Origin: Escherichia coli 042
GTDB lineage: Bacteria; Pseudomonadota; Gammaproteobacteria; Enterobacterales; Enterobacteriaceae
Assembly: GCF_000027125.1 (NCBI RefSeq)
Contig: NC_017626.1
Length of the DNA stretch: 64,000 nucleotides
Direction: 5' to 3' (one strand)
How positions within the stretch are numbered: position 1 is the first letter of the stretch; each line of letters opens with the position of its first letter. A program made the position numbers and the translations under genes. Under the pieces are notes generated by a model. That model was not told where the DNA came from, ran no database searches, and saw only the letters and a program-made list of their open reading frames with translations. Positions 1 to 18,067 of the stretch are shown in pieces.

Positions 1-1
1 G

Positions 2-1420
2 GAAGGAATTGAACTCAGACAGAGAGCAGATGCTTTTTCAAAACAATATCAGACCCGGGAGCAGCAGAGAGCTAGTGAACTTGCAAAACTGGAAAAGCTA
101 AAGAATCAGTATTCAAAGGAAGAATATAATAATCTTATCGCTCAAATAAATGAGCGTTATAAAGATCCAAAGCAACCAAAGGCGAAAGGTTATTCGGATG
201 ATGCTGCCCAACGAATGATTGATCATCTGAATCAACAGAATGCGTTACTAAGTTCACAAGCTGAATTGACCGTTAAATTAAGTTCCTCTGAACAGGAACT
301 GGTTAAGTGGCGTCAGCAGATTGCCGACCTGGAGTCACGACCGTCATCGAAATTAACCCAGGATCAGAAATCGCTTCTCTTACACCGGGAAGAAATAACC
401 GCGTTGATGGAGAAAAATGTTGCGATTGAAAAAAATAACAGGCTAATCAAAGAATCCGCCGAAATAGCCGCATGGCGTGATTCATTGCAGGCTTCGATTG
501 ATAATCGTCAGCAGGGGTATGATATTCAGATTGCTGGTTATGGGGTTGGCGATAAAAATCAGCAACGCCAGCAGGAATTACTGCGGATTGAACGTGAATA
601 TAACAATCAGCGTCTGCAACTTGAACGTGACTATGCAGATAAATCCCGTGGAATGTCAAATCATGTTTTTCAGGAGAAAATGCAGGCTCTGAATGATGCT
701 CTGGAGCGAGAAAAAGAAATTGTCAGCCAGAAAAACGAGCAGCTCGATATTCAGGCAGGAGACTGGATTAGTGGTGCCTCCCAGGGATTCAATAACTGGC
801 TGGATGACACTAAGGATATCGGTGCGCAAATAAAATCAACCACGACTCAGATGTTTGATGGGATGACCGATGCGCTAGGTGATTTTGTCACGACAGGCAA
901 GGCAAATTTTCGTTCTTTCGCTACTTCCGTGATTTCAGATCTTAGTCGAATTGCATTAAAGGCTTCAATTACTGGGATTTTCGACAGCATTAGTAACAGT
1001 TCTTCTGGGGGTATTTTAGGAACTATCGGGAGTGCTATTAGTAAATTTATTCCGAATGCAAAGGGCGGTGTTTATGAGTCTCCGTCATTGAGTACATATT
1101 CGAACGGTATTTATGACTCCCCGCAATTTTTTGCTTTTGCAAAAGGAGCTGGTGTTTTTGGTGAGGCTGGACCGGAAGCTATTATGCCATTAACGCGAAC
1201 TTCCGATGGTTCTCTTGGTGTCAGAGCTATTAATAGTAAAAGTGGTAATGGAGGCAGAGATATTACTTATGCCCCTGTATACCAAATCACTATTCAAAAT
1301 GACGGCCAGAATGGAGAGATTGGTCCTCAGGCAATAAAAGCACTTATGGGGATGGTTGATCAGCGGGTGCAGGGCGCTCTGTTAAATATGCGACGTGATG
1401 GAGGAATGTTAAGTGGCTAA
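2..1420 (+). CDS. phage tail tape measure protein, C-terminal portion (lambda H-like); 5' end lies upstream of the window
   Basis: Frame open from nt 2 to the stop at 1418-1420; Gly/Ser-rich C-terminal region typical of tape measure proteins; followed by M-L-K-I-J in lambda order. Confidence 0.7.
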   Translation, partial: EGIELRQRADAFSKQYQTREQQRASELAKLEKLKNQYSKEEYNNLIAQINERYKDPKQPKAKGYSDDAAQRMIDHLNQQNALLSSQAELTVKLSSSEQELVKWRQQIADLESRPSSKLTQDQKSLLLHREEITALMEKNVAIEKNNRLIKESAEIAAWRDSLQASIDNRQQGYDIQIAGYGVGDKNQQRQQELLRIEREYNNQRLQLERDYADKSRGMSNHVFQEKMQALNDALEREKEIVSQKNEQLDIQAGDWISGASQGFNNWLDDTKDIGAQIKSTTTQMFDGMTDALGDFVTTGKANFRSFATSVISDLSRIALKASITGIFDSISNSSSGGILGTIGSAISKFIPNAKGGVYESPSLSTYSNGIYDSPQFFAFAKGAGVFGEAGPEAIMPLTRTSDGSLGVRAINSKSGNGGRDITYAPVYQITIQNDGQNGEIGPQAIKALMGMVDQRVQGALLNMRRDGGMLSG

Positions 1421-1751
1421 TACGGAAGAATTTTACTGGTTACCAGAGGATGGAATGAAAACAGAAAATAAGCCATCGATAAAAACTGTAAGATTTGGCG
1501 ATGGTTATGAACAACGAAGCCCAAACGGACTTAATCATTCTCTGCGTGTTTTTACCTGTGATTTCAGGGTTGAGGCGAATGAACGTAATTCATTTGAACT
1601 GTTTCTGGCTCGGCATGGAGGCTATAAATCTTTTTTTTGGCGCCCGCCGGGTATTAACAGAAAAATCAGAGTGGTGTGTCGAACGTGGTCAGCGACAGAA
1701 CATATCACCTATACCGATTTTTCGTGTCAGTTTGACGAAGTGGTGATCTGA
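1413..1751 (+). CDS. minor tail protein M (lambda M-like)
   Basis: 112 aa; GTG start overlaps the tape measure stop; VRFGDGY-type motif and size as recalled for lambda M; position in tail module. Confidence 0.75.
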   Translation: MANTEEFYWLPEDGMKTENKPSIKTVRFGDGYEQRSPNGLNHSLRVFTCDFRVEANERNSFELFLARHGGYKSFFWRPPGINRKIRVVCRTWSATEHITYTDFSCQFDEVVI

Positions 1752-2449
1752 TGCAGGACATACGACAGGAAACACATCATGAGACGACACGCCTTACTCA
1801 GTCAGCCCAGGTGGTGCTCTGGGAAATCGATCTGACAGAGGTCGGTGGTGAACGTTATTTTTTCTGTAATGAGCAGAACGAAAAAGGTGAGCCGGTCACC
1901 TGGCAGGGGCGGCAGTATCAGGTATACCCTATTCAGGGGACGGGATTTGAACTGAACGGTAAGGGTAGTGCTACCCGTCCGACACTGACGGTCTCTAACC
2001 TGCACGGCATGGTCACCGGGATGGCGGAAGACCTGCAGAGTCTGGTCGGCGGAACGGTGGTCAGGCGTAAGGTTTACGCCCGTTTTCTGGATGCGGTGAA
2101 CTTCGTCAACGGAAACAGCGACGCCGATCCGGAGCAGGAGGTGATCAGCCGCTGGCGCATCGAGCAGTGCAGCGAACTGAGTGCGGTCAGTGCCTCCTTT
2201 GTGCTCTCCACACCGACGGAAACGGATGGTGCTGTTTTTCCGGGGCGCATCATGCTGGCCAACACCTGCACCTGGACCTATCGCGGTGATGAGTGCGGTT
2301 ATCATGGTCCGGCTGTCGCGGATGAATATGACCAGCCGACGTCCGATATCACGAAGGATAAATGCAGCAAATGCCTGAGCGGCTGTAAGTTTCGCAATAA
2401 CGTCGGCAACTTTGGCGGCTTCCTTTCCATTAACAAACTTTCGCAGTAA
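1751..2449 (+). CDS. minor tail protein L (lambda L-like)
   Basis: 232 aa, same length as lambda L; ATG overlaps the M stop (TGATG); Cys-rich C-terminus. Confidence 0.8.
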   Translation: MQDIRQETHHETTRLTQSAQVVLWEIDLTEVGGERYFFCNEQNEKGEPVTWQGRQYQVYPIQGTGFELNGKGSATRPTLTVSNLHGMVTGMAEDLQSLVGGTVVRRKVYARFLDAVNFVNGNSDADPEQEVISRWRIEQCSELSAVSASFVLSTPTETDGAVFPGRIMLANTCTWTYRGDECGYHGPAVADEYDQPTSDITKDKCSKCLSGCKFRNNVGNFGGFLSINKLSQ

Positions 2450-2453
2450 TCCC

Positions 2454-3197
2454 ATGACACAGACAGAATCAGCGATTCTGGCGCACGCCCGGCGATGTGC
2501 GCCAGCGGAGTCGTGCGGCTTCGTGGTGAGAACGCCGGAAGGGGAAAGATATTTTCCCTGCGTGAATATCTCCGGTGAGCCGGAGGCGTATTTCCGGATG
2601 TCGCCGGAGGACTGGCTGCGGGCAGAGATGCAGGGTGAGATTGTGGCGCTGGTCCACAGCCACCCCGGTGGTCTGCCCTGGCTGAGTGAGGCTGACAGGC
2701 GGCTGCAGGTGCAGAGCGATTTGCCTTGGTGGCTGGTCTGCCGGGGTGAGATTCATAAATTCCGCTGTGTGCCGCATCTTACCGGGCGGCGCTTTGAGCA
2801 CGGGGCGACGGACTGTTACACGCTGTTCCGGGATGCTTATCATCTGGCGGGGATTGAGATGCCGGACTTTCATCGTGAGGATGACTGGTGGTGTAACGGC
2901 CAGAATCTCTATCTGGATAATCTGGAGGCCACAGGGCTGTATCAGGTGCCGTTGTCAGCGGCGCAGCCGGGCGATGTGCTGCTGTGCTGTTTTGGTTCAT
3001 CGGTGCCGAATCATGCCGCCATTTACTGCGGCGACGGTGAGCTGTTGCACCATATTCCTGAACAACTGAGCAAACGAGAGAGGTATACCGACAAATGGCA
3101 GCGACGCACACACTCCCTCTGGCGTCACCGGGCATGGCACGCATCTGCCTTTACGGGGATTTACAACGATTTGGCCGCCGCATCGACCTTCGTGTAA
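2454..3197 (+). CDS. tail assembly protein K (MPN/JAB plus NlpC/P60-like)
   Basis: ATG 4 nt after the L stop; JAMM-type HSHPGG motif in the N-terminal half; lambda K family by position and motif. The longest frame begins at 2412. Confidence 0.75.
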   Translation: MTQTESAILAHARRCAPAESCGFVVRTPEGERYFPCVNISGEPEAYFRMSPEDWLRAEMQGEIVALVHSHPGGLPWLSEADRRLQVQSDLPWWLVCRGEIHKFRCVPHLTGRRFEHGATDCYTLFRDAYHLAGIEMPDFHREDDWWCNGQNLYLDNLEATGLYQVPLSAAQPGDVLLCCFGSSVPNHAAIYCGDGELLHHIPEQLSKRERYTDKWQRRTHSLWRHRAWHASAFTGIYNDLAAASTFV

Positions 3198-3742
3198 AAA
3201 CGGGGGCTGAAGCCATCCGGGCGTTGTCCACACAGCTCCCGGCGTTTCGTCAGAAACTGAATGAGGGCTGGTATCAGGTGCGCATTGCCGGGCGTGATGC
3301 AGGCGAAAATGAATTATCTGCCCGTCTTAATGAGTCGCTGGCAAATGGTGCCGTGATCCACATTGTGCCGCGTCTGGCGGGAGCTAAAAGTGGCGGTGTT
3401 TTTCAGGCAGTGCTGGGTGCGGCGCTGATTGCGGTGGCATGGTGGAACCCTGTGGGCTGGCTGGGTGCCGCGGCTGTATCGGGCATGTATGCGGCAGGGG
3501 CCAGTATGATCCTGGGTGGTGTGGCCCAGATGCTGGCACCGAAAGCCCGGACGCCCACAGCGACCAGCACGGATAACGGTAAGCAGAACACCTATTTCTC
3601 ATCACTGGATAACATGGTTGCCCAGGGCAATGTTCTGCCTGTTCTGTACGGTGAAATGCGCGTGGGGTCTCGTGTGGTTTCTCAGGAGATCAGCACGGCA
3701 GATGAAGGGGACGGTGGTCAGGTTGTGGTGATTGGCCGCTGA
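3095..3742 (+). CDS. tail assembly protein I (lambda I-like)
   Basis: 215 aa; overlaps the K 3' end; Gly/Ala-rich hydrophobic C-terminal half as in lambda I. Confidence 0.7.
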   Translation: MAATHTLPLASPGMARICLYGDLQRFGRRIDLRVKTGAEAIRALSTQLPAFRQKLNEGWYQVRIAGRDAGENELSARLNESLANGAVIHIVPRLAGAKSGGVFQAVLGAALIAVAWWNPVGWLGAAAVSGMYAAGASMILGGVAQMLAPKARTPTATSTDNGKQNTYFSSLDNMVAQGNVLPVLYGEMRVGSRVVSQEISTADEGDGGQVVVIGR

Positions 3743-3760
3743 TGCAAAATATTTCATGTG

Positions 3761-3790
3761 AAACCGCCTCCGGGCGGTTTTGTCGTTTAT
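3761..3790 (+). terminator. hairpin plus T-rich tract between I and J
   Basis: AAACCGCC / GGCGGTTT inverted repeat followed by TTTTGTCGTTTAT. Confidence 0.4.
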
Positions 3791-3802
3791 GGAGCATGAC
3801 GA

Positions 3803-6800
3803 ATGGGCAAAGGAAGCAGTAAGGGGCATATCCCGCGCGAAGCGAAGGACAACCTGAAGTCCACGCAGTTGCTGAGTGTGATCGATGCCATCAGTGAAGG
3901 GCCGGTTGAAGGTCCGGTGGATGGCTTAAAAAGCGTGCTGCTGAACAGTACGCCGGTGCTGGACAGTGAGGGGAATACCAATATCTCCGGCGTCACGGTG
4001 GTGTTCCGGGCAGGCGAGCAGGAGCAGTCACCGCCGGAGGGATTTGAATCCTCCGGTTCCGAGACGGTGCTGGGTACGGAAGTGAAATATGACACGCCGA
4101 TCACCCGCACCATTACGTCGGCAAACATCGACCGTCTGCGCTTTACCTTCGGTGTACAGGCACTGGTGGAAACCACCTCAAAGGGTGACAGGAATCCGTC
4201 GGAAGTCCGTCTGCTGGTTCAGATACAGCGTAACGGTGGCTGGGTGACGGAAAAAGACATCACCATTAAGGGCAAAACCACCTCGCAGTATCTGGCCTCG
4301 GTGGTGGTGGGTAACCTGCCGCCGCGCCCGTTTAATATCCGGATGCGCAGGATGACGCCGGACAGCACCACAGACCAGCTGCAGAACAAAACGCTCTGGT
4401 CGTCATACACCGAAATCATCGATGTGAAACAGTGCTACCCGAACACGGCACTGGTCGGCGTGCAGGTGGACTCGGAACAGTTCGGCAGCCAGCAGGTGAG
4501 CCGTAATTATCATCTTCGCGGGCGCATTCTGCAGGTGCCGTCGAACTATAACCCGCAGACGCGGCAATACAGCGGTATCTGGGACGGAACGTTTAAGCCA
4601 GCATACAGCAACAACATGGCCTGGTGTCTGTGGGATATGCTGACCCATCCGCGCTACGGCATGGGGAAGCGTCTCGGTGCGGCGGATGTGGACAAATGGG
4701 CGCTGTATGTCATCGGCCAGAATTGCGACCAGTCGGTGCCGGACGGCTTTGGCGGCACGGAGCCGCGCATCACCTGTAATGCGTACCTGACCACACAGCG
4801 CAAGGCGTGGGATGTGCTCAGTGATTTCTGCTCGGCGATGCGCTGTATGCCAGTATGGAACGGGCAGACGCTGACGTTCGTGCAGGACCGACCGTCGGAT
4901 AAGGTGTGGACCTATAACCGCAGTAATGTGGTGATGCCGGATGATGGCGCACCGTTCCGCTACAGCTTCAGCGCCCTGAAAGACCGCCATAATGCCGTTG
5001 AGGTGAACTGGATTGACCCGAACAACGGCTGGGAGACGGCGACAGAGCTTGTGGAGGATACGCAGGCCATTGCCCGTTACGGTCGTAACGTCACGAAGAT
5101 GGATGCTTTTGGCTGTACCAGCCGGGGGCAGGCGCACCGCGCCGGGCTGTGGCTGATTAAAACGGAATTGCTGGAAACGCAGACCGTGGACTTCAGCGTG
5201 GGTGCAGAAGGGCTTCGCCATGTACCGGGCGATGTCATTGAAATCTGCGATGATGACTATGCGGGTATCAGCACCGGCGGGCGCGTGCTGGCGGTGAACA
5301 GCCAGACGCGGACACTGACGCTCGACCGTGAAATCACGCTGCCATCCTCCGGCACCACGCTGATAAGCCTGGTTGACGGACAGGGGAATCCGGTCAGCGT
5401 GGAGGTCCAGTCCGTCACCGACGGCGTGAAGGTAAAAGTGAGCCGGGTTCCTGATGGCGTTGCCGAGTACAGCGTGTGGGGGCTGAAGCTGCCGACGCTG
5501 CGCCAGCGCCTGTTCCGCTGCGTGAGTATCCGTGAGAATGACGACGGCACGTATGCCATCACCGCTGTGCAGCATGTGCCGGAGAAAGAGGCCATCGTGG
5601 ATAACGGGGCGCACTTTGACGGCGACCAGAGCGGCACGGTGAATGGTGTCACGCCGCCAGCAGTGCAGCACCTGACCGCAGAAGTCACCGCAGACAGCGG
5701 GGAATACCAGGTGCTGGCGCGCTGGGATACGCCGAAGGTGGTGAAGGGTGTGAGCTTTATGCTTCGCCTGACCGTGGCAGCGGATGACGGCAGTGAGCGG
5801 CTGGTCAGCACGGCCCGGACGACGGAAACCACATACCGCTTCAGGCAGCTGGCTCTGGGAAATTACAGTCTGACAGTCCGGGCGGTAAATGCGTGGGGGC
5901 AGCAGGGCGATCCGGCGTCGGTATCGTTCCGGATTGCCGCACCGGCAGCACCATCGCGGATTGAGCTGACGCCGGGCTATTTTCAGATAACCGCCACGCC
6001 GCATCTTGCGGTTTATGATCCGACTGTACAGTTTGAGTTCTGGTTCTCGGAAAATCGGATTGCGGATATCAGGCAGGTTGAAACCAGCGCGCGTTATCTT
6101 GGCACGGCGCTGTACTGGATAGCCGCCAGTATCAATATCAAACCGGGCCATGATTATTATTTTTACGTTCGCAGTGTGAACACCGTCGGCAAATCGACAT
6201 TCGTGGAGGCTGTCGGTCGGGCGAGCGATGATGCGGAAGGTTACCTGGATTTTTTCAAAGGCCAGATAACCGAATCCCATCTCGGCAAGGAGCTGCTGGA
6301 AAAAGTCGAGCTGACGGAGGATAACGCCAGCAAACTGGAGGAGTTTTCGAAAGAGTGGAAGGACGCCAACGATAAATGGAATGCCATGTGGGGCGTCAAA
6401 ATTGAGCAGACCGAAGACGGCAGGCATTATGTCGCGGGGCTTGGCCTTAGTATGGAGGATACGGAGGAAGGCAAACTGAGCCAGTTCCTGGTTGCCGCTA
6501 ACCGTATCGCGTTTATTGACCCGGCAAACGGGAATGAAACGCCGATGTTTGTGGCGCAGGGCAACCAGATATTCATGAACGAAGTGTTCCTGAAGTATCT
6601 GACGGCTCCCACCATTACCAGTGGCGGCAATCCTCCGGTATTTTCCCTGACACCGGACGGGCGGCTGACGGCGAAAAATGCCGATATCAGCGGTAACGTG
6701 AATGCGAACTCCGGGACGCTCAATAATGTCACGATTAACGAGAACTGTCGGGTTCTGGGAAAACTGTCCGCGAACCAGATTGAAGGCGATCTCGTTAAAA

Positions 6801-7198
6801 CAGTGGGCAAAGCTTTCCCCCGTGACTCCCGTGCACCGGAACGGTGGCCATCAGGGACCATTACCGTCAGGGTTTATGACGATCAGTCGTTTGACCGGCA
6901 AATTGTTATTCCAGCGGTGGCTTTCAGCGGTGCCAGACATGAACGGGAGAATAGCGATACTTATTCGTCATGCCGCCTGATAGTGAAGAAAAACGGGGCT
7001 GAAATTTATAACCGAACGGCTCTGGATAATACTCTGATTTACACGGGTGTTATTGATATGCCTGCAGGCAGTGGCGTAATGACACTGGAGTTTTCGGTAT
7101 CAGCATGGTGGGTAAATGGCTGGTATCCCACAGCAAGTATCAGCGATTTGCTGGTTGTGGTGATGAAGAAAGCCACCGCAGGCATCAGTATCAGCTGA
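3803..7198 (+). CDS. host specificity protein J (central tail fibre), lambda J-like
   Basis: 1131 aa (lambda J is 1132 aa); C-terminal region resembles the recalled lambda J receptor-binding end ([21 protein letters not shown] motif). Confidence 0.85.
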
Positions 7199-7216
7199 AT
7201 TTTATAACCCCAATAC

Positions 7217-7241
7217 GGGCGTCAGAAATGACGCCTTTTTT
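7217..7241 (+). terminator. rho-independent terminator after J
   Basis: GGGCGTCA-GAAA-TGACGCC hairpin followed by TTTTTT. Confidence 0.5.
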
Positions 7242-7265
7242 ATTGCAGAAAAGCGAGAGGTAATT

Positions 7266-7865
7266 ATGCGTAAATTATGTGCTGTTATTCTGTCCGCAGT
7301 AGTCTGGCTGGTTGCCGCTGGTACGCCAGCGAGCGCAGCAGAGCATCAGTCCACACTAAGCGCCGGGTATCTTCAGGCCCATACTGATATGCCAGGCAGT
7401 GATGACCTGAAGGGCATTAACGTGAAATACCGTTATGAATTTACGGACACGCTGGGGCTGGTGACGTCATTCAGTTATGCCAATGCCAAAGATGAGCAAA
7501 AAACGCATTACAGCGATACCCGCTGGCATGAAGATTCAGTGCGTAACCGCTGGTTCAGCATGATGGCGGGGCCATCTGTACGCGTGAATGAATGGTTCAG
7601 TGCTTATGCGATGGCAGGTGTGGCTTACAGCCGTGTTTCGACGTTCTCCGGGGATTATCTCCGCGTAACTGACAACAAGGGGAAAACGCACGATGTGCTG
7701 ACCGGAAGTGATGACGATCGCCACAGCAACACGTCTCTGGCGTGGGGAGCTGGCGTGCAGTTTAACCCGACCGAATCCGTGGCCATTGATATTGCTTATG
7801 AAGGCTCCGGCAGTGGCGACTGGCGCACTGACGGTTTCATCGTGGGTGTCGGTTATAAGTTCTGA
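7266..7865 (+). CDS. lom: Lom/Ail/PagC-family outer membrane beta-barrel protein (lambda lom-like moron)
   Basis: 199 aa; signal peptide ending ASA; C-terminal ...GVGYKF aromatic terminus typical of OMPs; position between J and stf as in lambda. Confidence 0.8.
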   Translation: MRKLCAVILSAVVWLVAAGTPASAAEHQSTLSAGYLQAHTDMPGSDDLKGINVKYRYEFTDTLGLVTSFSYANAKDEQKTHYSDTRWHEDSVRNRWFSMMAGPSVRVNEWFSAYAMAGVAYSRVSTFSGDYLRVTDNKGKTHDVLTGSDDDRHSNTSLAWGAGVQFNPTESVAIDIAYEGSGSGDWRTDGFIVGVGYKF

Positions 7866-7892
7866 TTAGCCAGGTAACACAGTGTTATGACA

Positions 7893-7918
7893 GCCCGCCG
7901 GTTCAGGCGGGCTTTTTT
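7893..7918 (+). terminator. rho-independent terminator after lom
   Basis: GCCCGCCG-GTTCA-GGCGGGC hairpin followed by TTTTTT. Confidence 0.5.
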
Positions 7919-7923
7919 GTGGA

Positions 7924-10305
7924 GTGGATATGGCAGCAGTAAAAATCTCAGGTGTGCTGAAAGATGGTGCGGGAAAACCAATACAGAACTGCACTATTCA
8001 ACTGAAGGCAAAGCGTAACAGCACCACGGTACTGGTGAACACGGTGGCCTCTGAAAATCCGGATGAAGCCGGGCGTTACAGCATGGATGTTGAGTATGGT
8101 CAGTACAGCGTCACCCTGCTGGTTGAAGGTTTTCCGCCTTCACATGCCGGGACCATTACCGTCTATGAAGGTTCCAGACCAGGTACGCTGAATGATTTTC
8201 TCGGTGCCATGACGGAAGATGATGTCATGCCGGAGGCATTGCGTCGTTTTGAGGAAATGGTGGAAGAAGCGGCACGCAACGCTGAAGCCGCCTCTCAGAG
8301 CGCAGCGGCGGCAAAGAAATCCGAAACTGCAGCGGCATCATCGAAGAACGCGGCGAAAACCTCAGAAACGAATGCAGCTAACAGCGCACAGGCGGCAGCG
8401 GCCTCGCAGACTGCATCGGCAAACTCCGCAACAGCAGCTAAAAAATCAGAAACCAACGCGAAAAATAGCGAGACAGCCGCAAAGACGAGCGAAACCAACG
8501 CAAAGTCCAGCCAGACGGCAGCGAAGACCAGCGAAACGAATGCCAAAGCCAGTGAAACTGCGGCAAAAAACAGCCAGGTTGCAGCAGCCCAAAGCGAGAG
8601 CGCGGCAGCCGGTTCTGCGACTTCAGCAGCTGGATCAGCAACTGCTACGGCTAACAGCCAGAAAGCTGCGAAGACGAGTGAAACTAACGCAAAGTCCAGC
8701 CAGACGGCAGCGAAGACCAGCGAAACGAATGCCAAAGCCAGTGAAACTGCGGCGAAAAGCAGTCAGGATGCAGCGGCTCAAAGCGAGAGTGCCGCAGCCA
8801 GTTCTGCAAGCGCGGCGGCTGCTTCTGCCACTGCATCAGCTAACAGTCAAAAAGCAGCAAAAACCAGTGAAACCAACGCAAAGGTGAGCGAAACAGCGGC
8901 AGCGAACTCAGCGAAAGCATCGGCAGCAAGCCAGACGGCAGCTAAAGCAAGCGAAGATGCAGCCAGAGAGTACGCAAGCCAGGCTGCGGAGCCGTATAAA
9001 TATGTCTTACAGCCGCTGCCTGATGTGTGGATACCATTTAACGATTCGCTGGATATGATTACGGGCTTTTCGCCGTCATATAAAAAAATTGTTATTGGTG
9101 ACGATGAAATAACGATGCCTGGCGACAAGATTGTTAAGTTTAAACGTGCATCGAAAGCAACCTATATTAACAAATCTGGTGTGCTGACAGAGGCTGCCAT
9201 TGACGAGCCACGATTTGAACGTGATGGCCTGCTTATTGAGGGGCAAAGAACAAACTACATGCTCAATTCGGAAAGCCCTGCCAGTTGGGGGCGATCTTCA
9301 AATATGGATGTGCCCGAAACAGGGACGGATAATTTTGGTTTTACCTATGGAAAGTTTGTCTGCAACGATTCTCTGATTGGGCAAACCTCAGCCATTAATA
9401 TGGCATCAATTGCTGCAACAAAGTCAGTTGATGTCTCAGGCGATAATAAACACGTGACAACCTCATGTCGTTTTAAAACAGAACTGCAGGTAAGGTTGCG
9501 TATCCGGTTTGATAAATATGACGGTAGCGCAACAACTTTTCTTGGTGATGCGTATATTGATACACAAACGCTTGAAATTAATATGACAGGCGGTGCTGCC
9601 TCAAGGATTACAGCGAGAGTCAGAAAGGACGAAGCTACCGGATGGATTTTTGCAGAGGCAACAATTCAGGCAATTGATGGGGAGCTAAAAATAGGCTCTC
9701 AGATACAGTATTCTCCTAAGCAGAGCGGGGCAACCGTATCTGGTGACTATATTTATCTGGCCACCCCACAAGTAGAAGATGGGCCTTGTGTATCATCTTT
9801 TATTATATCAGGAGCGACGGCGGCGACCCGCGCAAGCGATATAGTTACAGTTCCAATTAAGAATAATCTTTATAATCTTCCTTTTACGGTTCTTTGTGAG
9901 GTACATAAGAACTGGTATAAAACGCCAAATGCAGCGCCACGTGTTTTTGATACCGGCGGTCATCAAACCGGAGCGGCTATTATTCTTGGCTTCGGTCGTT
10001 CAACAGATTACGACGGATTTCCTTATTGCGATATTGGAGGAGCTAACAGACGGGTAAACGAAAACGCATCGCTTGAAAAAATGGTTATGGGGATGCGTGT
10101 AAAGTCAGAGCAGTCTACGTGCTCAGTAAGTAACGGGCATATATCCAGCGAAACAAAAACCACATGGTCCTGTATTCAGAACACCGCAATTATCCGTATT
10201 GGAGGCCAGACTACAGCCGGGTTACGTCATTTATTTGGTCATGTCAGGAATTTCAGAATATGGCACAAGGCATTGACTGATGCTCAGGTGGGGGAGTCAA
10301 TCTAA
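7924..10305 (+). CDS. side tail fibre protein (Stf-like) with collagen-like Ala/Ser/Thr repeat shaft and divergent C-terminal domain
   Basis: N-terminal ~100 aa match the recalled lambda Stf N-terminus (MA.VKISGVLKDG.GKP.QNCTIQLKA...); KTSETNAK repeat shaft; C-terminal half (from ~nt 9000) visibly lower GC. Confidence 0.75.
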   Translation: MDMAAVKISGVLKDGAGKPIQNCTIQLKAKRNSTTVLVNTVASENPDEAGRYSMDVEYGQYSVTLLVEGFPPSHAGTITVYEGSRPGTLNDFLGAMTEDDVMPEALRRFEEMVEEAARNAEAASQSAAAAKKSETAAASSKNAAKTSETNAANSAQAAAASQTASANSATAAKKSETNAKNSETAAKTSETNAKSSQTAAKTSETNAKASETAAKNSQVAAAQSESAAAGSATSAAGSATATANSQKAAKTSETNAKSSQTAAKTSETNAKASETAAKSSQDAAAQSESAAASSASAAAASATASANSQKAAKTSETNAKVSETAAANSAKASAASQTAAKASEDAAREYASQAAEPYKYVLQPLPDVWIPFNDSLDMITGFSPSYKKIVIGDDEITMPGDKIVKFKRASKATYINKSGVLTEAAIDEPRFERDGLLIEGQRTNYMLNSESPASWGRSSNMDVPETGTDNFGFTYGKFVCNDSLIGQTSAINMASIAATKSVDVSGDNKHVTTSCRFKTELQVRLRIRFDKYDGSATTFLGDAYIDTQTLEINMTGGAASRITARVRKDEATGWIFAEATIQAIDGELKIGSQIQYSPKQSGATVSGDYIYLATPQVEDGPCVSSFIISGATAATRASDIVTVPIKNNLYNLPFTVLCEVHKNWYKTPNAAPRVFDTGGHQTGAAIILGFGRSTDYDGFPYCDIGGANRRVNENASLEKMVMGMRVKSEQSTCSVSNGHISSETKTTWSCIQNTAIIRIGGQTTAGLRHLFGHVRNFRIWHKALTDAQVGESI
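8461..8900 (+). repeat. in-frame 189-bp tandem direct repeat (~2.3 copies) inside the side tail fibre gene
   Basis: CAAAGTCCAGCCAGACGGCAGCGAAGACCAGCGAAACGAATGCCAAAGCCAGTGAAACTGCGGC occurs at 8501 and 8690; unit starts near 8461, 8650, 8839. Confidence 0.75.
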
Positions 10306-10586
10306 TGAAAGATTTAACACTCAAATTTGCCGACAGGGCCGACTTTTCGGCCTTTATGGATAGCACTGGCTATTATGATGACGAGTCGATGCAGGATGAT
10401 ATTCTTATTGACGTGATAGGTAACGTGTACAAAGAAACCGGAGAACTGACTGAAGATGGCGAACCGGTATGTGTTAAGGAAGACGGATATTTTGTAAACG
10501 TGCGCATCATTAATGATTCGCAAATATCGTCATTATTCGATGAATACGTGGTTGCTGTTGAGCATCAACTTCGTGGCTGGATGTGA
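10305..10586 (+). CDS. hypothetical protein, translationally coupled to the tail fibre gene (possible fibre assembly/chaperone factor)
   Basis: 93 aa acidic protein; ATG overlaps the stf stop (TAATG); no recognised motif. Confidence 0.4.
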   Translation: MKDLTLKFADRADFSAFMDSTGYYDDESMQDDILIDVIGNVYKETGELTEDGEPVCVKEDGYFVNVRIINDSQISSLFDEYVVAVEHQLRGWM

Positions 10587-10595
10587 GGAAGAAAA

Positions 10596-11636
10596 ATGGC
10601 TACATCGACAGTAATTCCTGATGACATCAAAACGCTAAAATCCGACGTTAGCAAATTAAAAAACGATCAAGGAAGCTACGCAACAAAATTATATGTAGAC
10701 AGCAAAGATGAAATCGTTGGTGACTGGTCTGCTTCATGGTATCAGCAGGTATTGCCAACTAGCGGAGCTATATTTGGGAGAAAACTCCGCTCAACTCACA
10801 GGACGGCAGGTGTTGAGGATGCGTATTGCGAACTATACCTCAAAAAATGGATAGACAGTCCAGGTAACGCAATGGCGCGCCTTAACCTGAACGATAACGG
10901 GACAAACATTTGCTGGGACTTTACCAACCTTTATGGCGGTACGATGATTTTTCCCGGTGACAGCGGATACCTCAAAATGGGTAACTGCCTTATGTCATAC
11001 AGCAAGCGTGGAAGTAACGCGCTTATTAAATTTGATTACACCGACACATTACAGATCAAATATGCCAATCATGGGTCAACCATGACATTAAACACACAGG
11101 GAACCGCTTATGCTGGTGTTACTGCTCAATTGTGGGGCAACACCAGCCGTCCTGTTGTTTATGAAGTCGGTGTTGATGGTGGCGCTTATATGTTCTATGC
11201 GCAGAAAAATACCGATAACACCTATATGTTAAGCGTTAATGGTGCATGTCATGCCACCGCATTTAACCAGCATTCCGACCGGGATCTGAAAGACAACATT
11301 CAGGTGATCGATAATGCAACCGACCGCATCCGTAAAATGAACGGCTATACATACACGCTTAAAGAAAACGGTATGCCCTATGCTGGTGTCATTGCACAGG
11401 AAGCTCTGGAAGCAATCCCAGAAGTTGTAGGTTCCGCAATGAAATATCAGGACGGTGCGAGCGGATCGGAAGGTGAAGAAGGTGAACGTTATTACACAGT
11501 AGATTATTCTGGTGTTACTGGCTTGCTTGTTCAGGTAGCCAGAGAGTCAGACGACAGAATAACAGCACTGGAAGAAGAAAACGCAGAATTAAGACAAAGA
11601 TTATCTGCAATTGAGGCGGCGCTTGCGTCTAAATAA
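10596..11636 (+). CDS. tail fibre/spike protein with C-terminal intramolecular chaperone (peptidase S74-like) domain
   Basis: 346 aa; GAGGAAG SD upstream; C-terminal HSDRDLKDNI motif matching the S-D-x-R-x-K-x-N-I autocleavage signature, followed by a coiled-coil tail. Confidence 0.6.
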   Translation: MATSTVIPDDIKTLKSDVSKLKNDQGSYATKLYVDSKDEIVGDWSASWYQQVLPTSGAIFGRKLRSTHRTAGVEDAYCELYLKKWIDSPGNAMARLNLNDNGTNICWDFTNLYGGTMIFPGDSGYLKMGNCLMSYSKRGSNALIKFDYTDTLQIKYANHGSTMTLNTQGTAYAGVTAQLWGNTSRPVVYEVGVDGGAYMFYAQKNTDNTYMLSVNGACHATAFNQHSDRDLKDNIQVIDNATDRIRKMNGYTYTLKENGMPYAGVIAQEALEAIPEVVGSAMKYQDGASGSEGEEGERYYTVDYSGVTGLLVQVARESDDRITALEEENAELRQRLSAIEAALASK

Positions 11637-11642
11637 TATTAA

Positions 11643-11665
11643 GGGGCCGAGCGCCCCGTTTTATT
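11643..11665 (+). terminator. hairpin plus T tract after the fibre gene
   Basis: GGGGCCGAGCGCCCCG followed by TTTTATT. Confidence 0.4.
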
Positions 11666-11678
11666 GGGTAGGATGAAA

Positions 11679-11972
11679 ATGGATATAACACCTTTCCTTC
11701 ATGCGCTTTGTGCTGTGGCTGCGCAGCTACTGATTGGTCTTTTTACCGGGAACTGGGCTTACGGGGCGATAGCCGGTTGTACGTTCTTCATTGCGCGTGA
11801 ACACACCCAGGCAGAATATCGCTGGATCGAAATGTTCGGGCATGGCAAGCGAATGAATATGCCGTGGTGGGGCGGTTTTGATCCGCGTGCATGGGATGTG
11901 GCAAGCCTGATGGATTTTGCTGTGCCGGTGGTGGCGTGTCTGCTGGTCTGGCTGTTGGTTAATCGTGGGTGA
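11679..11972 (+). CDS. small hydrophobic (probably membrane) protein, unknown function; prophage moron position
   Basis: 97 aa from the ATG with AGGA 6 nt upstream (longest frame from 11664); two to three hydrophobic segments; no known motif. Confidence 0.4.
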   Translation: MDITPFLHALCAVAAQLLIGLFTGNWAYGAIAGCTFFIAREHTQAEYRWIEMFGHGKRMNMPWWGGFDPRAWDVASLMDFAVPVVACLLVWLLVNRG

Positions 11973-12323
11973 AAAAAGGTGAGCTGTATATGCAACGGAG
12001 GAAGAAACCCCGTTGCTGGAAGCCTGGAAAAAGTATCGGATGCTGCTGAACCGTGTTGATACATCAACTGCACCTGATATTGAGTGGCCTACGAACCCTG
12101 TCAGGGAGTAATCATTGGGATTATGCCGCAGAAACGTTGTATGCAATAACGTTCTGCGGTTGGCTGATGCACTTTCGAGAGTGCATGTATTGAATTATTT
12201 CCAGCTATTATCGATTTTACGTATTTTTTGCATGAGAGAATTTGTACCTCCTCCCAACAACGACCTTCCATGACTTTCCGGACTTCTGTGGGCCAGCGGA
12301 CGATGCTGCCCTCGGATGTTGTG

Positions 12324-13181
12324 CTAATTGGGTGATGACAAATCCTGTGTATGGGTGTTTCCCTTTGTGCGTGCGTTGATGCTGGTAACGGTGAACGTCA
12401 TGATGAACACAACCGCGAATAAGACGACAATCGTCGGAGCTGGTGCACTGTCGATAAAAAAGGACAACCAGACACCAGTCATTGACACTATTACCGATAT
12501 GCCAATCGCCAGTAGGAGCGCAATATGAAAGCGTTGTGTCAGGAGTACCGCAATGGCGCCAGGCGCAATGAGCAGAGAAATGGAGAGAATGATACCTACC
12601 GCTTTCAGCGTCGCCACAATGGTCAGAGAGACCATGCACAGCAGCCCATAATGCAGACATCTCGTATGCAAACCGCTTACCTGCGCCTGTTGATAATCAA
12701 AGCTGAACAGCAAAAAATCCCGCCATTTTACGCTAATAACAAGTGTAACCAACCCGGCAATAATCACCGTCTGGATTATATCGCCGATGGTTACCCCGAG
12801 CATGTCGCCGAAAAGAATATGGTCAAGATGTACGTCTGGTTTGACTGCAATATACAAGATCAGACCTGCGGCAAACATGCCAGAAAAAACAATCCCCATC
12901 ACTGTATCTTGCTTGATTCGGCTGTTGTCTTTCAGGTATCCCGTCGCCACCGCGCAGAATACTCCGGCGACGAATGCCCCTGTAGCCAGAGGTAACCCCA
13001 GAATCCAGGCAAGCACGATGCCAGGAAAAACCGCATGACTCATCGCGTCACCCATCAGTGCCCAACCTTTCAGGACCAGAAAGACCGACAGCAGCGCACA
13101 GGGTATGGAAACTACCAGTGAAATCAGCAGTGCGTGACTCATAAAGGTGAACTGCAGTGGCTCCAGTAATAATGCCATCAT
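12324..13181 (-). CDS. sitD: Mn/Fe ABC transporter permease SitD
   Basis: 285 aa polytopic membrane protein; second of two paralogous permeases; 4-nt overlap with sitC. Confidence 0.85.
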   Translation of the reverse strand: MMALLLEPLQFTFMSHALLISLVVSIPCALLSVFLVLKGWALMGDAMSHAVFPGIVLAWILGLPLATGAFVAGVFCAVATGYLKDNSRIKQDTVMGIVFSGMFAAGLILYIAVKPDVHLDHILFGDMLGVTIGDIIQTVIIAGLVTLVISVKWRDFLLFSFDYQQAQVSGLHTRCLHYGLLCMVSLTIVATLKAVGIILSISLLIAPGAIAVLLTQRFHIALLLAIGISVIVSMTGVWLSFFIDSAPAPTIVVLFAVVFIMTFTVTSINARTKGNTHTQDLSSPN

Positions 13182-14035
13182 GAGCGATCCTCCAGCGCTT
13201 TATGCGCACGCCGACGATTTGCCAAAAGCCCATGGGTGGGCGCAAATACAAATGCTAAAAGAAACAGCAGTGTCTGCGCCACCACGATGATTCCACCTGT
13301 CGCGCCGTCCAGAAAGTAACTGACCCACGCGCCGAGGAAACTGGTTACACTGCCAATAGTTACAGCAATTATGAGCAGGCGGGGAAAATGATCGGTTAAC
13401 AACCATGCTGTTGCACCGGGAGTCACCACCAGACAGATCACCAGAAAGGCACCAACCGTTTGCAGCGCCGCAACGGTCGAAACCGACAGCAGGGTGAAGA
13501 AGAGGATTTTTAATCTGCCCGGATGCAATCCAATAGCACGAGCGTGATTCTCGTCGAAAAAGGTCACCATAAGATCTTTCCATTTGAAAAAAAGCACGAT
13601 GATCGAGAGAATGCCAATGATAGTGAGTTGCAGGATATCCGCCGGATCGATTGCCAGAATATTGCCCAGGACGATGGTCTGAATGTTCACGGATGTCGGG
13701 TTCAATGACACCATAAACAGCCCCAGGCCAAAAAAGGAGGAGAAGATCAGGCCGATGATGGCATCTTCTTTTAAGCGAGTGCGTTGGTTAAGAAACAGCA
13801 TGCTGCCCGCTGCCAGTCCGCCGGAAAAGAAGGCTCCCAGAGAAAACGGAAGCCCCAGCATATATGCCCCCGCAACACCCGGGACAATAGAGTGCGACAG
13901 CGCATCGCCAATCAGCGACCAGCCTTTTAGCATCAGATAGCATGACAGGAAAGCGCAGAGACCGCCGACCATCGCCGAGACCCACATCGCATTGAGCATA
14001 TATTCATAGCTGAAGGGTTCCAGTAGCACGTTCAT
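13178..14035 (-). CDS. sitC: Mn/Fe ABC transporter permease SitC
   Basis: 285 aa, ABC-3 type permease; overlaps sitB and sitD ends. Confidence 0.85.
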
Positions 14036-14859
14036 CTTGCTTCCCCCTGCACCGCTGACGGTCGATGTGCCACAAAAGGGTGTTCATCGTCAGTAATAAT
14101 GCTTTCTTCCGAGCCGTTAAGTGTGACATGGCGCAGTACGCCGCTAAAAGCCAGCTCCAGGTTCTCGGCTGTAAAAGTGGTGTCTGTCGGCCCGCTTGCC
14201 AGGACGGTGCCTTTGACCATGACCGTATAATCGCAAAATGTCGTGACTGAGCCGAGATTGTGCGTTGAGACAAGCATCGTCTTGCCTTCCGCGCGTAACT
14301 CCCTCAACAGGCTGATGATTTTCGCTTCGGTTTTCACATCAACGCCGGTAAAAGGTTCATCCAGCAGGATCACATCACCCTGCTGTGCAATCGCTCTCGC
14401 CAGAAAGACGCGTTTCTTTTGTCCACCGGAAAGCTCGCCGATTTGTCGATGGCGAAAATCCACCATATCGACACGTTCCAGCGCATCGGTGACAATCTGA
14501 CGATCCCTCTTTTTGGCTATACGCAACATACCCATGTGCCCATAGCGGCCCATCATCACCACATCTTCCACTAGTACAGGAAATGACCAGTCAACCTCTT
14601 CTGACTGAGGGACGTAGGCAACCAGGTTTTTCTGTAGCGCCTGTCGCGTGGGAATACCCAGAACAGATATCTTTCCGCTGGTCAGACGGACAAATCCCAT
14701 AATCGCTTTAAACAACGTCGATTTTCCGGAACCGTTTACCCCAACCAGAGCGGCAATAGATCCACTTGGTACTGTGAAGGATGCATCGCGCAGTGCTGTG
14801 TGCCCGTTACGCCAGGTGACAGTAACATCATTAACGACAATGCCCGCAGATTGCATCAT
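14032..14859 (-). CDS. sitB: Mn/Fe ABC transporter ATP-binding protein SitB
   Basis: 275 aa; Walker [13 protein letters not shown] signature LSGGQKKR, Walker B ILLDEP. Confidence 0.9.
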
Positions 14860-15773
14860 TATTTCTCCCTTTTCCCGGCTTTAATTCCCTGTACCAGCGT
14901 ACTGGTAGTAACCTTCAGAAGGTCGATATACGTAGGTACCGGGCCGTTTTCTGTGCTCAGGGAATCGACATAGAGTACACCGCCGTAGTGCGCGCCGGTT
15001 TCACGCGCAACCTGACGCGCTGGTTTATCGGAAATCGTACTCTCGCTAAAGACTGCCGGGATATGATTTTTCTTCACCATATCAACAACCTTACGTACCT
15101 GCTGCGGCGTGCCTTGTTGATCGGCATTAATCGGCCACAGATAAAGCTCTTTTAGCCCCAAATCGCGTGCGAGATAAGAAAAAGCCCCTTCACTGGTGAC
15201 CATCCATCGCTGATTCTCAGGGAGTTCAGCAATCTGCTTACGCAGGGGGGCAAGGGTTTGGGTAATCTTGGCTTTATAAGTATCGGCATTACGTTGGTAG
15301 GTTTGTGCATTTGCCGGATCGTATTTTATCAACGCATCACGAATATTATCGACATAAATCAGAGCATTATCTGGCGACATCCAGGCATGGGGGTTAGGTT
15401 TGCCCTCATAGGGTCCTTCGGTGATCCCTACTGGCGTCACACCCGAAGAGACAATTACTTCTGGAACCCCATTGAGATGTTGGTAAAAGCGTTGGAACCA
15501 CAATTCCAGATTCATACCATTGGCGAGAATCAGTTGTGCCCCCTGCGCACGTTTAATATCTCCAGGGGTAGGCTGATACTCATGAATTTCTGCACCAGGC
15601 TTGGTTATGGATGAGACTTCTGCAGCATCTCCAGCCACGTTTTTGGCCATATCCGCGATGATGGTAAATGTTGTAATGACCTTGAATTTTTCAGTTGCAC
15701 TTGCCTGAAATGCGATCGAGCAGGTGAGGGCGAGGCACCCCAAGAGCATGGTTACTTTTTTTATTGAGTGCAT
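14859..15773 (-). CDS. sitA: periplasmic Mn/Fe-binding protein SitA (cluster 9 / TroA-like)
   Basis: 304 aa with signal peptide; first gene of a four-gene co-directional operon. Confidence 0.85.
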
Positions 15774-15804
15774 AATTTAGTACCTATAGTGAGCAAAATT
15801 AGAA

Positions 15805-15828
15805 AAAACATAGCAACAGCTATGTTTT
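15805..15828 (-). promoter_or_regulatory. MntR-type operator upstream of sitA
   Basis: Palindrome AAAACATAGC-AACA-GCTATGTTTT, 32-55 bp upstream of the sitA start; matches the recalled E. coli MntR box (AAACATAGC...GCTATGTTT). Confidence 0.6.
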
Positions 15829-15849
15829 ATAGCATAAGCCATGCAAAAT

Positions 15850-15868
15850 GAAAATGATTATCATTAGC
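15850..15868 (-). promoter_or_regulatory. Fur box-like site upstream of sitA
   Basis: GAAAATGATTATCATTAGC resembles the Fur consensus GATAATGATAATCATTATC, ~80-95 bp upstream of sitA. Confidence 0.5.
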
Positions 15869-15981
15869 GGTTGTGGGCCCAACACAGGGATTAGGTTGTT
15901 TCCTGCTGGCGATGTGGTATTGAGGAAAAAATTAGGGCAGCTATTAGGCTTTGAAATGACTTTATGAGGAGAATTGTTGAT

Positions 15982-16032
15982 GGCAAAAATGGGGCAAAGC
16001 GCTGCAAAAGGGGCAAAAAAGGGGCAAAAAAA
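15982..16032 (+). repeat. short tandem GGGGCAAA(A) repeats (4-5 copies)
   Basis: GGCAAAAA, GGGGCAAAG, GGGGCAAAAAA, GGGGCAAAAAAA in tandem; overlap a 22-codon Lys-rich mini-ORF (15980-16048) with a GAGGA SD 9 nt upstream. Confidence 0.4.
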
Positions 16033-16331
16033 GAGTGGGTTATCGTAGCTTATTGTTGTCGCTGATGATGTTTAACACATTGAAAAATAAGTAAAATACT
16101 TATGAGTCAGAGAGTTGTGATTTTTGCCCTTACTTGTTCAGATTGTATTGTTCTTTCTTACTAATTTCTTGATTTTGCGACATTTAAAAGCGACTCAATT
16201 CGTTATATGGCATCAGAAGAGTATGCGTCATGCCGGAAAGCCCAGCATAAGAAATCTGATATAAAAACTGTGGCGTGTATGGTACGGATTAGAGGGGAAA
16301 ATGTCAGCACATTTGCGAAATGAATCAAAAA

Positions 16332-16351
16332 GCCCGCAGCAATGTGCGGGC
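16332..16351 (-). terminator. hairpin immediately downstream of uspF
   Basis: GCCCGCA-CATTGC-TGCGGGC on the minus strand followed by TTTTTGATT. Confidence 0.5.
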
Positions 16352-16358
16352 GTTAGTG

Positions 16359-16874
<516 letters not shown>

Positions 16875-16933
16875 TTAGATCAAAGGAGGAAGAATAAGCA
16901 GAAAAAGCCCGCCATAACAGCGGGCAGGAGGAT

Positions 16934-18067
16934 TTAGAACTGATAAACCAGACCTAAAGCGACAATATCATCGGTAGAGATGCCGTTGGCAGCGTAGAAG
17001 CTGTCATCTTCATCCAACAGGTTGATTTTATAGTCAACATAGGTGGACATGTTTTTATTGAAATAGTAAGTCGCGCCAACATCGGCGTATTTAACCAGAT
17101 CTTTATCATCAACACCTGCCGGGTTGTCTGCACCACCGGCAGCGTGCAGGTCACGGCCTTTAGACATCAGGAAAGAGACTGCCGGACGCAGACCAAAATC
17201 AAACTGGTACTGTGCAGTAACTTCAAAGTTCTGGGTTTTGTTTGCAACAGCATAATCGCTGTCGCCAAACGGGGTCATATTACGCGTTTCTGAATACATG
17301 GTTGCCAGGTAAATATTGTTAGCATCGTATTTTAGCCCAGCAGTCCACGCGTCTGCTTTATCACCACCCGCCGCAGTATGGTTAACCTGGTCATTGGTGC
17401 GGTCAGAAGAGGTGTATGCCGCACCAGCGCTAAAGCCCATGCCTAAATCATATGTTGTGGAAAGACCCCAGCCGTCACCGTTTTCATGGCGAACATCACG
17501 TCCGTTGTTGGTGCCTTCCTGACCATTACTGGCACCTTCGTTGTTACCTTGATACTGCACCGCGAAGTTCAGACCATTTACCAGACCGAAGAAATCAGTA
17601 TTACGATAAGTCGCGACGCCATTGGCACGACCAGTCATAAAGTTGTCTGCATTGGTATAAGAGTCACCGCCAAATTCAGGCAGCATATCGGTCCAGCCTT
17701 CGATGTCGTACATTACGCCATAATTACGTCCGTAATCGAAAGAACCGTAATCTGCAAATTTCAATCCGGCAAATGCCAGACGGGTCCATGACTGGTTTTT
17801 TGAGGATTCAGTGTTGTTTGCCTGAATATTGTATTCCCATTGACCGTAGCCAGTGAGTTGATCGTTAATTTGCGTTTCGCCTTTAAAACCCAGACGCGCA
17901 TAGCTCTGGTCGCCATCTTTCGCTGAATTATCAGAAAAATAATGCAGGCCATCAACTTTGCCATACAGATCTAATTTGTTGCCGTCTTTATTATAAACTT
18001 CGGCTGCATGTGCAGCACCTGCGGCGAGCAGGGCAGGAATTAAAAGTGCCAGTACTTTGCTTTTCAT
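16934..18067 (-). CDS. ompN: outer membrane porin OmpN
   Basis: 377 aa general porin (OmpC/F family); signal peptide; C-terminal ...LVYQF. Confidence 0.85.

Follow-up and report, generated by a model that had tools for sequence, protein, structure and literature searches.

Phased direct repeats in the right attachment site of a Rac-like prophage of Escherichia coli 042 as candidate arm-type sites for an IntR-family integrase

The DNA analysed here, referred to as the window, is a stretch of 64,000 nucleotides of Escherichia coli 042 (NC_017626.1), and its bases 1-16159 belong to a Rac-like prophage, integrated in ttcA, of which they make up the right part. The genes sitA (14859-15773) and uspF (16359-16793), both on the minus strand and placed according to the annotation of a 99.5%-identical genome, are separated by a 585-bp spacer that was compared with 5,426 complete E. 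coli genomes using megablast. The comparison split the spacer into three segments. The DNA upstream of sitA (15774-15987) travels with sitABCD and ends inside the first unit of a short repeat array; plasmids carry this segment at 85% identity (matches to positions 2-214 of the spacer query), where it adjoins IS1. The central segment (15981-16133, plus strand) is phage-derived, is common to the right end of the K-12 Rac prophage and constitutes the P arm of attR, with the first repeat unit as the left limit of its homology. The third segment (16134-16358) corresponds in prophage-free strains to the first 50 nt of ttcA and its upstream region, and the native ttcA promoter region extends to 16358. 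Homology of the K-12 type, representing the Rac right end, begins at 15977-15981 and runs to 16358. Upstream of sitA lie a perfect palindrome, AAAACATAGCAACAGCTATGTTTT (15805-15828), and a AAAATGATTATCATTAGC element (15852-15869), which resemble the MntR and Fur operators that would presumably be expected at the promoter of a manganese and iron transporter. A promoter and terminator scan flagged the palindrome, in the sitA promoter, as terminator-like, together with the terminator hairpin of uspF, and nothing else.

The right boundary of this sitABCD-carrying, Rac-like prophage is fixed to the base by the 26-bp att core (crossover region) TTGTTCAGATTGTATTGTTCTTTCTT at 16134-16159, which is unique in the window and at which native ttcA DNA starts. 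The preliminary description of this DNA, made from the letters alone, had suspected the right prophage boundary in the sitA-uspF region, and this suspicion was correct. A search of the window for a second core found none, attL lying outside the window. At the other prophage end, attL carries the same 26 bp with one G/A difference at position 9: the core in the window has A at this position (16142), as does the otherwise identical core of the native attB, and attL, attP and the attR of K-12 have G. The presence of A at 16142 implies that strand exchange was resolved to the left of position 9, or that the site was converted later. The sequences of Rac attL and attR have been published (PMC4632033). 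Overlapping the core is the ttcC remnant (16130-16183, minus strand), which is the displaced original 5′ end of ttcA, reads MSQNQEISKKEQYNLNK followed by a stop codon, and matches the 5′ end of ttcA in prophage-free strains.

Positions 15960-16060 of the window read gaggagaattgttgATGGCAAAAATGGGGCAAAGCGCTGCAAAAGGGGCAAAAAAGGGGCAAAAAAAgagtgggttatcgTAG and contain an array of five phased direct repeats on the plus strand (15980-16028), which we propose as arm-type sites for integrase binding within the attR P arm. Three units are exact copies of GGGGCAAA (unit 2, 15991-15998; unit 4, 16010-16017; unit 5, 16021-16028) and two are degenerate (unit 1, ATGGCAAA, 15980-15987; unit 3, GCTGCAAA, 16001-16008). 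The C residues of successive units are 11, 10, 9 and 11 bp apart, a period of about 10-11 bp that is close to one helical turn, and A3-A7 tracts recur every 9-11 bp (mean approximately 10.25 bp). Tandem Repeats Finder reported a period of 11, with 4.8 copies at 15982-16030 and 2.4 copies with 100% match at 16006-16031. The four to five tandem units placed at 15982-16032 in the preliminary description are therefore real, as five units at 15980-16028, and their period is 10-11 bp, not 8-9 bp. The exact sequence GGGGCAAAA occurs twice in the 64 kb, both times within the array, and no further copies were found across the window. In 200 first-order Markov simulations of the window the longest phased chain of GGCAAA-like units was three, compared with the five observed, so the chain exceeds chance expectation, and the GGGGCAAA micro-repeat is real and non-random.

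The array lies 106-154 bp to the left of the core, on the phage side, and since the prophage ends at the core, with the array approximately 100 bp further left, it makes up the outer portion of the attR P arm. In K-12 Rac, attR contains this array too, equally far from the core, and the P arm of the window is 98% identical to that of K-12 Rac over 153 bp. The array is likewise conserved in Rac-SA53. At the other end of the K-12 prophage, attL carries two units (GGGGCAAAttgGGGGCAAA) that have the orientation of the array, are spaced 11 bp apart and stand 49 bp from the core; they immediately precede the intR stop codon and so lie between that codon and the ttcA start codon. Relative to the core, the units of the P′ arm span +49 to +68 bp and those of the P arm -106 to -154. 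The nearest sequenced relative of the window, KK19-02, which is 99.5% identical over the sitA-uspF spacer, contains an entire Rac-like prophage, about 53 kb long, in which sitABCD adjoins attR; at its other end xisR, intR and attL are intact, with the same pair of units in attL as in K-12 (GGGGCAAAttgGGGGCAAA). With all repeats left in place and these three elements intact in the nearest relative, the element looks excision-competent.

The two arms were found joined in one contig of the IMG/VR collection (L039, IMGVR_UViG_2529293146_000014, 4373 bp), which has the structure of attP and reads, in order, the five-unit array, 101 bp, the core, 49 bp, two units and intR. This contig, recorded as viral, comes from an isolate genome and looks like an assembled, excised Rac circle, in which case it would give direct sequence evidence of spontaneous Rac excision. 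The attP sequence was obtained from this contig only, as 70 of 80 IntR loci in IMG/VR end 3 bp after int and were uninformative about attL.

The P arm was present in 1,533 of the 5,426 E. coli genomes. In its most divergent E. coli variant (77% identity) the units are kept and the flanks have diverged. At least five unrelated left flanks, among them the sit-side, ynaM-side and tail-fibre-side flanks, converge at unit 1, a pattern that would follow if the functional attP extended outwards no further than unit 1. The virulence-associated sit cassette is spliced in exactly at this outer edge of the attachment site and leaves all repeats in place. Its joint with the P arm lies in a short shared stretch, ATGGCAAA/GCAAAAAT (window 15966-15990 compared with positions 1400-1440 of locus L224), past which the sit upstream DNA of plasmids continues differently and abuts IS1 approximately 140 bp further on; the short shared stretch and the different continuation in plasmids together suggest that recombination at short homologies carried sitABCD between plasmid and prophage contexts.

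Between the array and the core, a candidate IHF bend site, TAACACATTGAAA (16073-16085, plus strand), is predicted from a 12/13 match to the consensus TAAnnnnTTGATW, taken as in PMC8407004, and the surrounding block ttaac..ttgaaaaata is kept across P-arm variants. In attL, IHF footprinting by Kasho et al. found a peak at TAATTTGTTGATT (PMC8407004), flanked by the core on one side and the two P′ units on the other, a position like that of H′ in lambda. For the consensus close to the start codon of ttcC at attR, which is a different site from 16073-16085, the same study reported no IHF peak in vivo. An inverted copy of GGGCAAAAA (16123-16131, minus strand), 2 bp to the left of the core on the phage side, is conserved and could be a core-proximal Int site or an accessory site; it is missing on the corresponding bacterial side of attL.

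The integrase encoded at the far end of the element carries an N-terminal arm-DNA-binding domain (IntR residues 5-69, Arm-DNA-bind_2, PF12167, E=3.9e-26) ahead of the tyrosine-recombinase catalytic domain, and XisR is a putative excisionase of the DUF1233 type. In a sequence search of the PDB the only matches were to catalytic and core-binding domains, those of Tn1549 Int and of Xer-type recombinases, and no solved relative of the N-terminal domain appeared. The decisive comparison was with phages that encode homologues of IntR. In the complete genomes of PHB10 (Int 69% identical to IntR), the Stx1 phage NC_004913 (43%), Aeromonas phage AsXd-1 (43%) and Klebsiella phage RothD (42%), GGGGCA(A/T) direct repeats in one orientation occupy the positions of both the P and the P′ arm and are rare elsewhere in the four loci. 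In PHB10, the P arm holds three copies of tagGGGCAAA, the core is Rac-like and GGGCATAatagGGGCAAA immediately precedes the int stop codon; the Stx1 phage has a layout of the PHB10 type around an annotated attachment site that differs from that of Rac; and AsXd-1 and RothD each have one GGGGCA(A/T) pair beside the int stop codon and a second pair approximately 200 bp further out, no core having been located in these two phages. Neighbouring units in the four phages are mostly 11 bp apart, with gaps of 12-20 bp in PHB10 and the Stx1 phage. The arm motif is thus kept with the IntR family, at 42-69% integrase identity, while the attachment site varies, as in the Stx1 phage record.

The array lies in an att arm outside the crossover core, and the excised-type contig shows it joined to core and P′ arm; copies of its consensus stand in both arms, five units in P and two in P′, in the same orientation; they are conserved; IntR has an N-terminal domain of the arm-binding kind; and the motif recurs in both arm positions of phages with IntR homologues. 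On these observations, the units are most likely arm-type binding sites for the IntR-family integrase of this Rac-like lambdoid prophage, situated in the P arm of attR, and we infer that IntR binds the repeats and requires them for recombination. Counting against this assignment are the degeneracy of two of the five units, the lack of a reported in vivo IHF peak at attR, and the possibility that phased A-tracts alone could bend the DNA without sequence-specific binding of Int.

In the attP of phage lambda, the arm-type Int sites P1 and P2 lie in the P arm and P′1-P′3 in the P′ arm. The Rac site resembles that of lambda in having multiple direct copies of a short, non-core consensus in both arms at comparable distances, IHF consensus sites between the arm sites and the core, an integrase with a separate N-terminal arm-binding domain, and a small excisionase gene adjoining int. 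It differs from lambda in its arm consensus, GGGGCAAA, known here from sequence alone, in the arm domain itself (Arm-DNA-bind_2 in IntR, Arm-DNA-bind_1 in lambda), in the tight packing of five P-arm units, and in the location of its core, within the 5′ end of the protein gene ttcA. Judged by this layout, the Rac attP appears to follow the lambda-type heterobivalent design, from which it departs in its arm consensus and in the family of its arm domain. The prophage of the window shares with K-12 Rac the 26-bp core, the ttcA site and the P arm, as well as the xisR/intR module as seen in the nearest relative, and differs from it in its full length of about 53 kb and in the sitABCD genes beside attR, both as seen in KK19-02. 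A further parallel is the attP of the Enterococcus phage phiEf11, whose P arm contains an 11-nt direct repeat, AAAGGGGCAAA, and whose P′ arm contains AAAGGGGCA, both described as putative integrase-binding sites (PMC12540744); as in Rac, these arm repeats in both arms are predicted only, whereas the host is a Firmicute and the core lies in ffs. The same motif as GGGGCAAA also stands at the att site in the phiKW2 paper (PMC3757294). Liu et al. 2015 (PMC4632033) defined the Rac core and the binding of XisR to an attR fragment and did not describe the repeats, and a literature search with GGGGCAAA, TTTGCCCC and the term arm-type returned no mapping of IntR arm sites, its one Bifidobacterium match being irrelevant.

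The attP of the free phage consists of five GGGGCAAA-like units, approximately 100 bp containing the candidate IHF site, the 26-bp core, an IHF site, two GGGGCAAA units and the intR stop codon, and integration leaves the five-unit arm at the right end, in the window, and the two-unit arm beside intR at the left end. During excision, by analogy with lambda, the N-terminal domains of IntR would hold the GGGGCAAA units of attR and the pair in attL, and the catalytic domains would occupy the core; bends introduced by IHF and XisR in the intervening DNA would allow arm-bound protomers to reach it. The near-helical spacing and the phased A-tracts would set all units on the same side of the helix and probably pre-bend the DNA.

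The preliminary description had also drawn attention to an ATG-initiated ORF of 22 codons over the array, preceded by GAGGA, and had offered a small peptide or leader, a slippage-prone tract or prophage-junction debris as explanations. The ORF is present as it was described: it runs from ATG at 15980 to TAG at 16048 (plus strand; peptide MAKMGQSAAKGAKKGQKKSGLS; listed as a 24-aa, TTG-start ORF at 15974-16048), with GAGGA at 15966-15970 leaving 9 nt to the ATG, and in strains with one additional unit the annotation pipeline PGAP calls a 41-aa 'hypothetical protein' from the same ATG. A genuine Lys-rich small protein or leader peptide translated from the GAGGA and ATG of 15966-15982 is nevertheless extremely improbable. 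An ORF is to be expected over a repeat of this composition, as all three plus-strand frames are open across the array, and GAGGA and ATG are part of the sit-side flank and occur in sit-flanked copies only; K-12 Rac reads tttcgGTGGCAAAAA (tttcgGTG) and Rac-SA53 reads cgGTAGCAAAAA, with GTA, neither having a Shine-Dalgarno sequence, and in the plasmid sit copy, which reads ATGGCAAAGCAAAAATAA, the ORF ends after 5 codons. Start codon and ribosome-binding site are thus not conserved across homologous loci, and neither frame nor length is preserved, since indels of 11 bp or 22 bp alter the frame and the C-terminus. What PGAP calls over the array also changes in both frame and length from strain to strain: the 'hypothetical protein' has 57 aa in J53, 41 aa in AJ1, 49 aa in ET896 and 58 aa in Z1324, and KK19-02 has no call. 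The promoter scan found no plus-strand promoter-like site upstream of the ORF, an Rfam scan of 15000-17200 (E<=1) gave no relevant match, only one snoRNA model (E=0.48, 17066-17119) far below its threshold, and the DNA motif is conserved in non-coding contexts of other phages. As the sit cassette joins the P arm within ATGGCAAA/GCAAAAAT, the ribosome-binding sequence and ORF (15966-16048) are chimeric, a by-product of the junction that would have arisen when the cassette brought GAGGA and ATG to the left edge of a stop-free repeat. The slippage proposal is weakly borne out, in that comparison among strains did find length variants in 11-bp steps (one unit more in AJ1 and 23CRST010, two more in ET896, one fewer in L210) and, in Z1324 (Z1324SEC0014; locus L220, 300-500), a duplicated 33-bp block, GGGGCAAAAATGGGGCAAAACGTTGCAAAA, giving about 8 units and the 58-aa PGAP call. 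These variants are rare, however: a query with one additional unit matched 22 genomes at 99% or more and 17 others at 95-99%, giving about 22-39 such genomes among the 1,533, and the variants with two more units, one fewer or the 33-bp duplication were singletons in the sample, such that approximately 97% or more of the 1,533 genomes share one unit number. The array is not hypervariable, and with units that persist where the arms diverge and reappear in the P and P′ arms of related attP sites, and with no phase-switchable gene or promoter evident, it is very unlikely to be a hypermutable simple-sequence tract (a contingency locus) or meaningless slippage debris at the prophage junction. What had been taken for possible debris has instead the appearance of functional attachment-site DNA.

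A different protein might occupy the same units, and the excisionase is the obvious candidate, given that tandem direct repeats in the P arm are typical excisionase targets and that XisR shifted a 294-bp AttR probe that includes the array, but not an AttM control (electrophoretic mobility shift assay of Liu et al., PMC4632033). When the AttM primers were mapped on K-12, however, this unshifted probe proved to hold the complete array up to the edge of the core (locus L001, 2362-2653), a result that comes from a single negative-control lane (PMC4632033). Sites for an excisionase would be bound by the cognate excisionase and confined to the P arm, and on the evidence of that one control and of the P′ arm units the array departs from both expectations. 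With copies also in the P′ arm beside int, where excisionase sites are unexpected, and with a motif that tracks IntR-family integrases across genera, it is very unlikely that the units serve XisR or another architectural protein in place of the integrase; the unshifted AttM probe and the P′ units instead favour the integrase as the binder. The same primer mapping (L001 2362-2778; window approximately 15840-16257) puts the XisR-binding determinant in or to the right of the core, on the ttcC side, which is unusual for an excisionase. The A3-A7 tracts, with their mean spacing of approximately 10.25 bp, would also fit intrinsically bent DNA with a purely structural role and no sequence-specific protein contact, but the invariant element across phages is GGGGCA and not the A-tract, RothD and AsXd-1 having GGGGCATgg, and IntR has a dedicated arm-binding domain, which makes a structural role of this kind highly improbable. 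A part for the array in the regulation of sitA was considered and rejected, as plasmid sit copies are without it.

The spread of the motif beyond the close relatives of Rac was surveyed by scanning IMG/VR for GGGGCAAANNNGGGGCAAA, which gave more than 120 loci, many in low-GC phage contigs, in a sample that is biased by design, being selected on the motif, and in which many loci are related. Among the 59 loci with at least 1.5 kb of sequence to the right, 25 have a tyrosine integrase gene that ends within 400 bp on the opposite strand, in the geometry of Rac attL, and the gap from motif to integrase gene is often only 4-9 bp. Pairs of GGGGCAAA at 11-bp spacing occur in many unrelated phage contigs (loci L087-L206; for example L101 55-73, L147 343-361 and L090 11908-11926). 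A single-sequence phmmer search with IntR detected integrases at 21 of 120 motif loci, a figure that rose to 41 of 120 after HMM iteration, and the integrases of the motif loci fall into about 8-10 N-terminal sequence types; a Pfam search assigned no named arm-binding domain to the Firmicute integrases among them. It is conceivable, although we hold this only tentatively, that GGGGCA(A/T) repeats, usually 11 bp apart, are a widely shared arm-type 'address' used both by the IntR/Arm-DNA-bind_2 family of Escherichia, Klebsiella and Aeromonas and by several distantly related tyrosine integrases of low-GC Gram-positive phages.

For the E. coli locus, the analysis removes a false small-gene candidate and explains the inconsistent automatic annotation at this position in hundreds of E. 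coli genomes. For Rac it offers a testable map of attP, with predicted arm sites, IHF sites and core, of a kind not found in the literature searched. If the wider sharing of the motif is true, one arm motif could serve as a general signature for attP arms and prophage ends.
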